From NCBI GenBank assembly GCA_017512025.1, contig JAFWHH010000007.1:9155-73154 (forward strand): DNA of 64,000 nucleotides, read 5' to 3'. This stretch comes from Clostridia bacterium. GTDB taxonomy: Bacteria > Bacillota > Clostridia > TANB77 > CAG-508. Shown here one piece after another: positions 62,352 to 64,000 of this stretch. The notes beneath the pieces were generated by a model. The model did not search any database, was not told the DNA's origin, and worked only from the letters and a program-made list of their open reading frames with translations. The position numbers and the translations under genes were made by a program. Positions within the stretch are counted from its first letter, which is position 1, and each line of letters opens with the position of its first letter.

Positions 62352-63692
62352 TTATTCTTGATAATCATCTACTTCAAGTTTAACATACATATTTGACAGA
62401 GTTCCTCTTAAATGTCTAAATGGTGTTCCATCTTGTTGCACACTCGCACCAAAAGTAGTTTCTGTGCTAAATCTTCCAGTATAGTTTTGAAAATCTAGAT
62501 TTATTAGCTTTTTCTCTCCGCCATTTATGCTATAATATATTTTTTTCTTTTGTCTATATATTTTAACATAATTTACCGTTCTATAATCATTAAACGTAGT
62601 ATTTTTAGTAGTATTTGTTGCAGCAGCAAGTTCTAGCTTATTTTTATCGCTCGATAAAACTCTAAATACAAATCCAGGCCTAATATTTGTTGATCCATCT
62701 TCATCTTTAGTATTCACAAATGCATATTGACGTTTTTCAATAAGATCTTGATCATCTGGGTCAAATGATTCAATTGTAAATCCAATCTCAAAATCTTTAT
62801 CATAGTTTTCCTCACTAAATAGTGCAACATGTGAATTTACAAATTTACCATCACTTCCTAAATATTGATCTGGAACTTCTCCATCAGCAATTGCTACATC
62901 TTTTCCATTAAATGTAACTGGGCTTTCGATAGAAAATACAGTTTCTAACCAATCAACCCACTTAGCATAATAAGTAGTACTTTCTGTTGGAACAGTATTT
63001 TCATTAACCTTTGTTGTGTAGCTGTTATCTGTATACCATCCTCTAAATTTATAGTTTTCTTTTTCAGGTATTTGTAATTTCCCTATTGCTGTTCCTTCTG
63101 CAACATATTTTGAAGGAATATCATTTCCACCATTTGAGTCAAATTTTATTTCATAAGTTTCTGGCTCTTTCCAATTAGCTTTATATGTTTTATCACCTGT
63201 TGACCCTTTATTAATTTTGACACTTGTTTGAGGTGTATTTCCATTACTTCCTGTCCATCCTGTAAATTTAACTCCTGATTTAGTTGGATTAATTAATGTT
63301 ATTTCATCCTCAACCGTATATGTTGTTGGGTTTCCTGATTCTATACTTCCGCCATCCAAGTTATAACTAATATTATAATTTATTATTTCGTATTTAGCCT
63401 CTACGGAGGTGTCTTCGGTAATTGGTGTATTTAAATCTAACAAATCTCCATTTTCTTTTTGCCATCCAATAAAGTTATAACCATTCTTTTCTGGTTCCTC
63501 TAGCTCATCTACAAGATCATTGTAGTTAAGTATCTTTTCATTGACTACGTCACCAACTTTATAAGTAAAAATTATTTTATCTTGTAATGAAACTATATTA
63601 TCAATGGTTATATCAATTTTTTTAAATGTCACTGCTTCAGATACAGTTGGAATAACTAATATTCCAATAAGAAGCATGCTATATAGTTTCAT
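62352..63692 (-). CDS. Secreted protein with Listeria-Bacteroides (InlB B-type) repeats and a C-terminal lectin-like domain
   Basis: Signal peptide MKLYSMLLIGILVIPTVSEA. Three repeats of the type GY.F.GW....G...........T..A.W. The unrecognised ~200-aa C-terminus is guessed to be a jelly roll. The frame is also open upstream (see next feature). Confidence 0.7.
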   Translation of the reverse strand: MKLYSMLLIGILVIPTVSEAVTFKKIDITIDNIVSLQDKIIFTYKVGDVVNEKILNYNDLVDELEEPEKNGYNFIGWQKENGDLLDLNTPITEDTSVEAKYEIINYNISYNLDGGSIESGNPTTYTVEDEITLINPTKSGVKFTGWTGSNGNTPQTSVKINKGSTGDKTYKANWKEPETYEIKFDSNGGNDIPSKYVAEGTAIGKLQIPEKENYKFRGWYTDNSYTTKVNENTVPTESTTYYAKWVDWLETVFSIESPVTFNGKDVAIADGEVPDQYLGSDGKFVNSHVALFSEENYDKDFEIGFTIESFDPDDQDLIEKRQYAFVNTKDEDGSTNIRPGFVFRVLSSDKNKLELAAATNTTKNTTFNDYRTVNYVKIYRQKKKIYYSINGGEKKLINLDFQNYTGRFSTETTFGASVQQDGTPFRHLRGTLSNMYVKLEVDDYQE

Positions 63693-64000
63693 ATGCTTTC
63701 CGCAATTTTGTCCCTTTTTCATTTTTACAAGAACTATCAATGTTAAAAGTGATACTGTAGCCATTGTGGCATATATACCTAAATTATCCCCTGTTTTTGG
63801 ACCTGATGGTTTATTAATTGGTATTTCGGCTTGAGATTCTTCTCCATTTTCATCAACAAGTGTAATGTATATATTTGTAGAAAATGTTTGATCTCTATTA
63901 GCTATATCAGTAATTTCCTTAACATATTTTTCTGTTATATAAAAAGAAAGTTCATCTTTTGAATTGAATTTTACACCTTCATAATTATCATATTCATATG
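63693..64000 (-). CDS. 3' end of a cell-wall-sorted surface protein (sorting signal PKTG + TM + KMKKGQ); no stop codon before the next signal peptide
   Basis: I translated the frame codon by codon from 64000. ...IPINKPSGPKTGDNLGIYATMATVSLLTLIVLVKMKKGQNCGKH continues straight into MKLYSMLL... in the same frame. Confidence 0.6.

Follow-up and report, generated by a model that had tools for sequence, protein, structure and literature searches.

Both teaching and annotation place sortase signals at the C-terminus of surface proteins. The only documented exception that we found is the N-terminal LPXTG motif of the streptococcal Zmp/IgA1 proteases, and the retention of these proteins on the cell is described vaguely. 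Here, we analyze a gene for a surface protein of 655 amino acids (aa) in which a sorting signal close to the N-terminus is followed, in the same reading frame, by a second signal-peptide-like segment and a passenger. The gene is on the minus strand and runs across the right edge of a 64,000-nucleotide (nt) stretch of DNA (G000:C21:9155-73154; henceforth, the window), which is part of contig C21 of a 1.9-Mb metagenome-assembled genome (30.7% G+C, 34 contigs). The best reading overall, to which we assign a probability of about 0.62, is that the gene encodes a single precursor with a conserved N-terminal sortase-anchor cassette, and that this precursor is cut by sortase and by signal peptidase.

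The closest described systems are the M26 zinc metalloproteases of streptococci and Gemella, i.e. the IgA1 protease (ZmpA), ZmpB, ZmpC and ZmpD. At the level of architecture, which is the only level at which we compared them, these proteins and the window protein have the same N-terminal order of signal peptide, sortase motif, transmembrane (TM) segment, charged stretch, second TM segment, repeats and large passenger (PMC3518915). The second TM segment of the Zmp proteins possibly serves as a further signal peptide that has a cleavage site of its own (PMC3518915), and the N-terminal motif is described as needed for surface localization (PMC3518915, citing Bender and Weiser 2006). Moreover, Zmp proteins are depleted in a srtA mutant (PMC13604702).

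Judged by this analogy, the cassette family to which the window protein belongs resembles the Zmp anchor in design but stands outside the Zmp family. The Zmp motif is an LPXTG motif of the sortase A type, whereas the motif here is SGPKTGD, with NPKTGD as the form typical of the family. The stretch between signal peptide and motif is short in the Zmp proteins; by contrast, the window protein has a folded immunoglobulin (Ig)-like domain of ~135 aa at this position. The passengers also differ: here, Flg_new repeats and a lectin-like domain make up the passenger (in relatives, DUF285, Big_2 and leucine-rich-repeat (LRR) domains are found), the only Pfam matches in it are Flg_new and Flg_new_2, with neither an M26 peptidase nor a G5 domain, and no peptidase was detected in 49 relatives. 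Finally, the host here is an uncultured gut-type lineage of Clostridia. The repeats are shared with the Listeria InlB B-repeat/Flg_new proteins. InlB itself is held by GW modules and not by a sortase signal, and the InlB annotation is silent on the N-terminal cassette.

To obtain the complete protein, we followed the frame beyond the window. The start codon lies 319 nt past the window edge (G000:C21; L002:2474), and residues 1-107, including the first signal peptide, are encoded 1-319 nt outside the window. A strong ribosome-binding site (RBS; GAAGGAG) is present 7 nt upstream of the ATG, and further upstream there is a promoter-like site. The protein starts with an ordinary signal peptide, KKVAILIVILIFLFSLFKVGQSLA (residues 1-34), with the predicted cut before S, and the region upstream of the sorting signal is, as the first-pass annotation of the window had presupposed, part of a secreted protein. 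From there, the layout continues with the Ig-like domain, SGPKTGD, a TM helix, a Lys-rich loop, a second signal-peptide-like helix ending PTVSEA, three Listeria-Bacteroides repeats and the lectin-like domain. We obtained the same translation of the junction as had been reported previously: on the minus strand, PINKPSGPKTGDNLGIYATMATVSLLTLIVLVKMKKGQNCGKH continues into MKLYSMLLIGILVIPTVSEAVTF without a stop codon.

The first-pass annotation had left three explanations for this junction side by side, i.e. a sequencing error, a recent fusion caused by loss of a stop codon, and a polyprotein cut by sortase. The first of these is refuted by the finding that the identical 655-aa open reading frame is present on 19 contigs, which differ in sample and assembler of origin (ENA and Logan) and all have the same synteny (topA, an S51 peptidase gene, the surface-protein gene, mraZ and rsmH), together with nine near-identical sequence variants, all of which are uninterrupted. 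The second is refuted by the homologues. The junction is in frame in seven of seven homologous frames with the same layout (paralogues or orthologues of 705-1637 aa) from four further genomes of the genus, in each of 25 homologues from the databases, the most distant of which is 29% identical, and in 141 of 162 family members, and there is no stop codon between the two parts in any homologue examined. Because the junction is in frame in every homologue examined, it is more than chance.

The same data bear on the possibility that two proteins are made from one frame, with translation initiating internally at the ATG at 63692-63690 and the upstream sortase substrate having lost its stop codon by recent fusion or assembly error. 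This ATG lies where the second hydrophobic segment begins, within the basic loop, with GGAAAG just 5' of it, and the downstream part had been taken for the next surface protein with a start of its own. As was already recognized then, this putative RBS is weak; its spacing of 3 nt is too close. Only seven of 141 family members have a Met close to the beginning of the second TM segment. The low frequency of this Met and the close spacing of GGAAAG indicate that there is no conserved second start. Moreover, the linkers between the two hydrophobic segments vary from 5 to 71 aa with all homologues in frame, and stand-alone versions of the N-terminal module make up at most about 4% of the matches and mostly look truncated. 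Thus, internal initiation or stop loss is refuted as far as sequence data go, and we consider it very improbable. Instead, the region forms one N-terminal cassette, and we regard it as almost certain from these comparisons that the cassette is real, conserved and encoded in a single open reading frame.

To define the family, a profile was built from eight cassettes and run against 1.84 billion representative proteins. It matched 1552 clusters at E<=1e-3, 678 at E<=1e-10 and 166 at E<=1e-30. Among the best 150 of the 1552 matches, the cassette almost always occupies residues ~1-230 of proteins of 400-3400 aa. Of 162 members that were classified, 141 have the motif, both TM segments (TM1 and TM2), the loop between them and a passenger of more than 100 aa, and the remainder are mostly short fragments. 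Within the genus, five of 30 genomes carry the cassette; we found it in none of 31 genomes that belong to the same family or order but to other genera and, apart from the genome of the window, in no genome of an even class-wide sample (~400 genomes), i.e. the distribution is patchy or this first look was insensitive. The cassette proteins represent a large and apparently undescribed family of gut-Clostridia surface proteins.

Within the cassette, the N-terminal domain is modeled by AlphaFold2 (residues 1-234, alignment of 21 sequences) as nine strands spanning residues 39-168 with a predicted local distance difference test (pLDDT) score of about 90. A sandwich that borrows strands from downstream of the hairpin is disfavored for this protein by the model, in which all nine strands are already predicted with confidence. 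The structural matches of the domain in Foldseek are generic Ig-like/E-set folds only and give no functional lead. No curated Pfam or NCBIfam model covers the cassette, and the matches to DUF11 and DUF7507 are sub-threshold. The sorting signal has the motif, a 20-residue hydrophobic TM1 and a positive tail in the canonical order, and these three elements are common to it and to canonical C-terminal sorting signals. Here, however, they are located at residues 172-211 of 655 and are followed by 444 residues in the same frame, and the basic loop, as read from its sequence, provides the sorting signal with its charged tail and the second signal peptide with its n-region. This second signal peptide reads GKHMK, LYSMLLIGILVI and P-T-V-S-E-A before V, and this succession of positive n-region, hydrophobic core, helix breaker and small residues at -3/-1 is typical of a type I (Sec) signal peptide. 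P224, T225 and A229 are invariant in an alignment of eight sequences from the genus. The predicted N-terminus of the passenger is at V230 and its sequence begins VTFKKIDITIDN. We also considered a lipoprotein signal for TM2 and dropped it, as there is no lipobox Cys.

These features recur across the family. In the 140 members counted, the motif positions are occupied by N in 113, P in 127, K in 83, T in 140, G in 108 and D in 134, giving the consensus N-P-K-T-G-D, and in an alignment of 49 members the only invariant columns are the P, T and D of this motif and one Tyr in the N-terminal domain. The inter-helix loop has a median length of 8 residues and, summed over 141 members, contains 860 K+R and 77 D+E, a positive-inside pattern as is characteristic of cytoplasmic loops. 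In 132 of these 141 members, TM2 ends with Pro and then small-x-(A/S/G), in keeping with the signal peptidase I rule. Altogether, the sequence signals and the structure model support a predicted topology with the N-terminal domain outside, TM1, the loop inside, TM2 and the passenger outside.

Based on these data, we suggest the following model for the processing of the precursor. The first signal peptide would direct the export of the ~135-aa Ig-like β-sandwich until transfer is stopped by the sorting signal, i.e. SGPKTGD and TM1, leaving the Lys-rich loop in the cytoplasm. TM2 would then act as an internal signal peptide and restart export for the passenger with its Flg_new repeats and lectin-like domain. 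Sortase would cut between T176 and G177 and join the Ig-like domain to the cell wall, while signal peptidase I would cut after A229 and free the passenger from the remaining membrane hairpin of ~53 aa. On the grounds of motif and context, cleavage by sortase is probable, and from the form of the TM2 end cleavage by signal peptidase is somewhat favored as well. In this way, the third of the earlier explanations is retained in outline, namely a precursor cut by sortase with its N-terminal part anchored to the wall. As TM2 ends in a conserved signal-peptidase-type site, the passenger is more likely freed than left as a C-terminal module anchored by two TM segments, as had been proposed.

Which sortase would act on this motif can be approached from the motif itself and from the sortases of the genome. 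NPQTN is the SrtB signal in S. aureus, PPKTGD that in C. difficile, and NPKTG with a required P2' Asp that in B. anthracis (PMC11987632). In light of these signals, the family consensus NPKTGD and its variants NPKTND and NPQTND are class-B-like. Among the individual class B substrates with which it can be compared, S. aureus IsdC (NPQTN), B. anthracis IsdC (DNPKTGDE) and C. difficile CD0386 (PPKTGD), NPKTGD agrees with the extended motif of B. anthracis SrtB, also in having Asp at P2' (PMC11987632). Six sortase genes are present in the genome, including the one at 48447-49142 of the window that had been reported previously and that we find again. Two are true class B sortases (C24:22540-23577, 220 bits; C28:511097-511972, 171 bits; TIGR03064 cut-off 153.75). 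The other four pass the general sortase model of NCBIfam only, and for the sortase of the window the scores of the models for classes C, D and E are far under their cut-offs. The genome also contains about 25 ordinary C-terminal signals, mostly of the form x(V/I/P)KTG(D/S/N/K), e.g. ISPKTGD, SVKTGD and SIKTGD; SGPKTGD is the sole internal copy of this motif class. One of the C-terminal signals, ISPKTGD, lies ~2 kb from the class B sortase gene on C24. The type of the motif favors a class B sortase as the enzyme that would cut the window protein.

The C24 sortase gene is part of a pilus-like cluster (G000:C24:20726-26179; L027 2724-8180), which encodes a 597-aa protein ending PPDTG and a TM segment, the class B sortase (329 aa), whose C-terminal TM tail is long and rich in Lys, a signal-peptidase-I-like protein of 183 aa, a 341-aa protein ending SVTG and a TM segment, and a 284-aa protein ending ISPKTGD and a TM segment. 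The cluster resembles the class-B-sortase/SipA pilus loci of streptococci. The 284-aa protein gives a weak match to the cassette profile (E 8.5e-6, profile positions 91-206) that may rest mainly on the sorting signal. We did not retain it as a stand-alone paralogue of the N-terminal domain, and we cite it solely to illustrate that the motif occurs next to a class B sortase.

Several observations weigh against processing by sortase and signal peptidase. P4 of the motif is Gly in the window protein and Ser in alleles P0005 and P0009, where the family has Asn; the P, K, T, G and D agree with NP(Q/K)T(N/G) and an acidic P2'. The P1' Gly is replaced in about 23% of the family members, with N, E, S, D and H among the substitutes. 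About a quarter of the cassette proteins (e.g. P0073, P0074, P0083, P0091, P0103 and P0117) retain N-P-x-T-x-D with N, H, A, F, M, W, V or K in place of this Gly. As judged from their motifs, these members may have a sortase of relaxed or different specificity, or cleavage may have been lost in a sub-lineage. The sorting-signal models PF00746 (Gram_pos_anchor) and TIGR01167 give no match on the 655-aa protein in Pfam and NCBIfam, and the matches of PF00746 in three of 21 cassettes are all sub-threshold. The signal-peptidase site was assessed by the -3/-1 rule and not by a trained predictor. Lastly, no sortase gene is adjacent to the cassette gene in the genome of the window or in the relatives examined: the cassette gene is on C21, a contig that has neither of the two srtB genes, in relatives cassette and srtB genes are mostly on different contigs, and class-B-like fragments on G020:C3 are ~18 kb off. 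In known class B substrates, the signal is C-terminal and the gene is usually a neighbor of srtB. Co-occurrence is uninformative, because 23 of the 30 genomes of the genus, among them all five that carry the cassette, have a class B sortase. Given P4, the lack of an adjacent gene and the presence of class B sortases regardless of the cassette, the motif cannot be assigned to a specific enzyme.

The main rival builds on some of these observations. It holds that the sorting-signal-like segment is an uncut relic and that the two ectodomains, Ig-like and adhesin, are borne on a two-helix membrane hairpin, with or without a signal-peptidase cut after TM2. The members without a P1' Gly (NPKTND, NPKTHD, NPNTFD and others), the silence of the Gram_pos_anchor model and the lack of linkage to a dedicated sortase speak for this reading. 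By contrast, a plain stop-transfer helix has no need of a motif with invariant P, T and D and a strong N-P-K-T-G-D consensus. Moreover, the same motif is used in the terminal substrates encoded by this genome, the analogous Zmp proteins are sortase-dependent (PMC13604702), and Asn at P1' occurs in the genuine SrtB site NPQTN (PMC11987632). We therefore consider an unprocessed hairpin unlikely, albeit well above the level at which it could be neglected.

If the precursor is processed at both sites as we suggest, the passenger would either bind non-covalently to its own wall-linked N-terminal domain or be released. A non-covalent hold via the N-terminal anchor has been discussed for the pneumococcal IgA1 protease. 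By analogy, the wall-linked Ig-like domain might serve as a private receptor on which the passenger docks, an idea that we regard as tentative and, on balance, doubtful. If true, the cassette would be a self-contained surface-assembly device with which the two exported halves are re-united outside the cell. A covalent version of such an assembly can also be envisioned, in which sortase transfers Thr176 to the α-amine or a Lys of the passenger rather than to peptidoglycan, and the hairpin is excised like a membrane "intron", amounting to "protein splicing" across the membrane. Every family member has one short hairpin flanked by both predicted cut sites, and class B and C sortases link proteins together in pilus assembly (PMC11987632). 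Conversely, the residues past the predicted signal-peptidase site are variable (V, A, K, T, S and others) and offer no obvious acceptor, and the product would be anchorless, with no evident advantage over a protein made without the hairpin. Rejoining by sortase is, thus, improbable.

The passenger itself is composed of two parts. In agreement with the earlier description of a 446-aa C-terminal part with Listeria-Bacteroides repeats, Flg_new (PF09479) matches the 655-aa protein in three stretches with 112.6 bits (cut-off 27), PF18998 matches the repeats with 43.3 bits and TIGR02543 with 62 bits (cut-off 20.95). The C-terminal jelly-roll domain is modeled with a pLDDT of 88.9 and a predicted template-modeling score of 0.88. 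Its best Foldseek matches are the CBM40 sialic-acid-binding modules of sialidases from Ruminococcus gnavus and C. perfringens and LamG/LNS domains, with template-modeling scores of about 0.45-0.49, and a profile search found nothing in the sequences of the PDB. On this evidence, which is at the level of the fold class, the domain is a probable ligand- or glycan-binding head. It recurs as the terminal module in at least 30 family members. Two tandem copies are present in P0133 (836 aa), and in P0077 and P0117 the domain is internal rather than C-terminal.

Passengers differ across the family and between close relatives of the window protein. Among 49 relatives, 43 have Flg_new, 31 Flg_new_2, 15 DUF285 and six Big_2 domains, and LRR types and others are also found. 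The cassettes of alleles P0009-P0012 are 97-98% identical to that of the window protein, whereas the passengers are 66-79% identical, with a sharp drop in identity at the residue 229 boundary. These mosaic alleles suggest that the exposed adhesin part is exchanged between strains by recombination. As far as can be read from the sequences, the cassette is a portable module placed ahead of many different adhesin-like passengers.

In our literature search, we found no paper on the cassette, on a general class of internal sorting signals or on Flg_new proteins with a sortase, beyond the Zmp papers. A homologue is named merely "InlB B-repeat-containing protein" by NCBI. Annotation pipelines overlook the cassette, and localization predictions and censuses of sortase substrates are wrong for these proteins. 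Compared to the Zmp proteins, the new elements are the class-B-type motif, a folded Ig-like domain as the piece linked to the wall, and interchangeable adhesin passengers. N-terminal sortase anchoring, therefore, appears to be a general and portable design and not a streptococcal oddity. The family also offers a simpler, non-pathogen system in which to ask how a protein stays on the cell after its front-end anchor has been cut off.

Table 1. Positions in the window of the surface-protein gene, the parts of its product and associated features.
Feature	Position	Strand	Basis
Surface-protein gene, part in the window (residues 108-655 and the stop codon at 62352-62354)	62352..64000	-	Translation
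Ig-like β-sandwich N-terminal domain, C-terminal half (residues 108-171), predicted wall-linked part	63807..64000	-	AlphaFold2, Foldseek
Sortase recognition motif S-G-P-K-T-G-D (residues 172-178), predicted cut between T176 and G177	63786..63806	-	Translation; motif comparison in genome and family
TM1, NLGIYATMATVSLLTLIVLV (residues 179-198), hydrophobic part of the sorting signal, predicted out-to-in	63726..63785	-	Sequence; AlphaFold2 helix 180-199
Predicted cytoplasmic basic loop, KMKKGQNCGKHMK (residues 199-211), with the internal ATG at 63690-63692	63687..63725	-	5 K/R, 0 D/E
TM2, second signal-peptide-like segment, LYSMLLIGILVIPTVSEA (residues 212-229), predicted signal peptidase I site between A229 and V230	63633..63686	-	Alignment of 8 sequences, family rule; AlphaFold2 helix 210-231
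Passenger, part 1: Listeria-Bacteroides (Flg_new/InlB B-repeat) repeats (residues 230-449)	62973..63632	-	Pfam, NCBIfam
Passenger, part 2: C-terminal concanavalin-A-like/LamG jelly-roll domain (residues 450-655)	62355..62972	-	AlphaFold2, Foldseek
Intrinsic-terminator-like hairpin immediately 3' of the surface-protein stop codon	62313..62346 (L002 468-501)	.	15-pair stem between T and A runs
Sortase gene, unlinked to the substrate gene	48447..49142	-	PF04203, 91 bits

Upstream of the surface-protein gene, three tRNA genes lie between it and the S51 peptidase gene in the genome of the window. Those for tRNA-Cys(GCA) and tRNA-Gly(GCC) are directly upstream and on the same strand (L002 2601-3052, ~450-900 nt past the right edge of the window), behind a near-consensus extended -10 promoter (TTGACA-17-TG-TATCAT), and there is also a divergent tRNA-Ser(TGA) gene. 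Just past the window, there is a giant surface protein with a 3208-aa open frame and an ordinary C-terminal signal, YSVKTGDNEAIYLVAMTIASVVMLAAIIAKRF (L002 11649-17001; G000:C21:82651-92274). Further giant surface proteins are encoded on C13 (6541 aa, LAVKTGN) and C24 (5146 and 3834 aa). Two near-identical frames of 167 aa that end KSIKTGDE, a TM segment and KKR are each located at the extreme end of a contig (G000:C1:3-503 and G000:C21:92880-93380) and may represent a repeated gene at which the assembly is broken.

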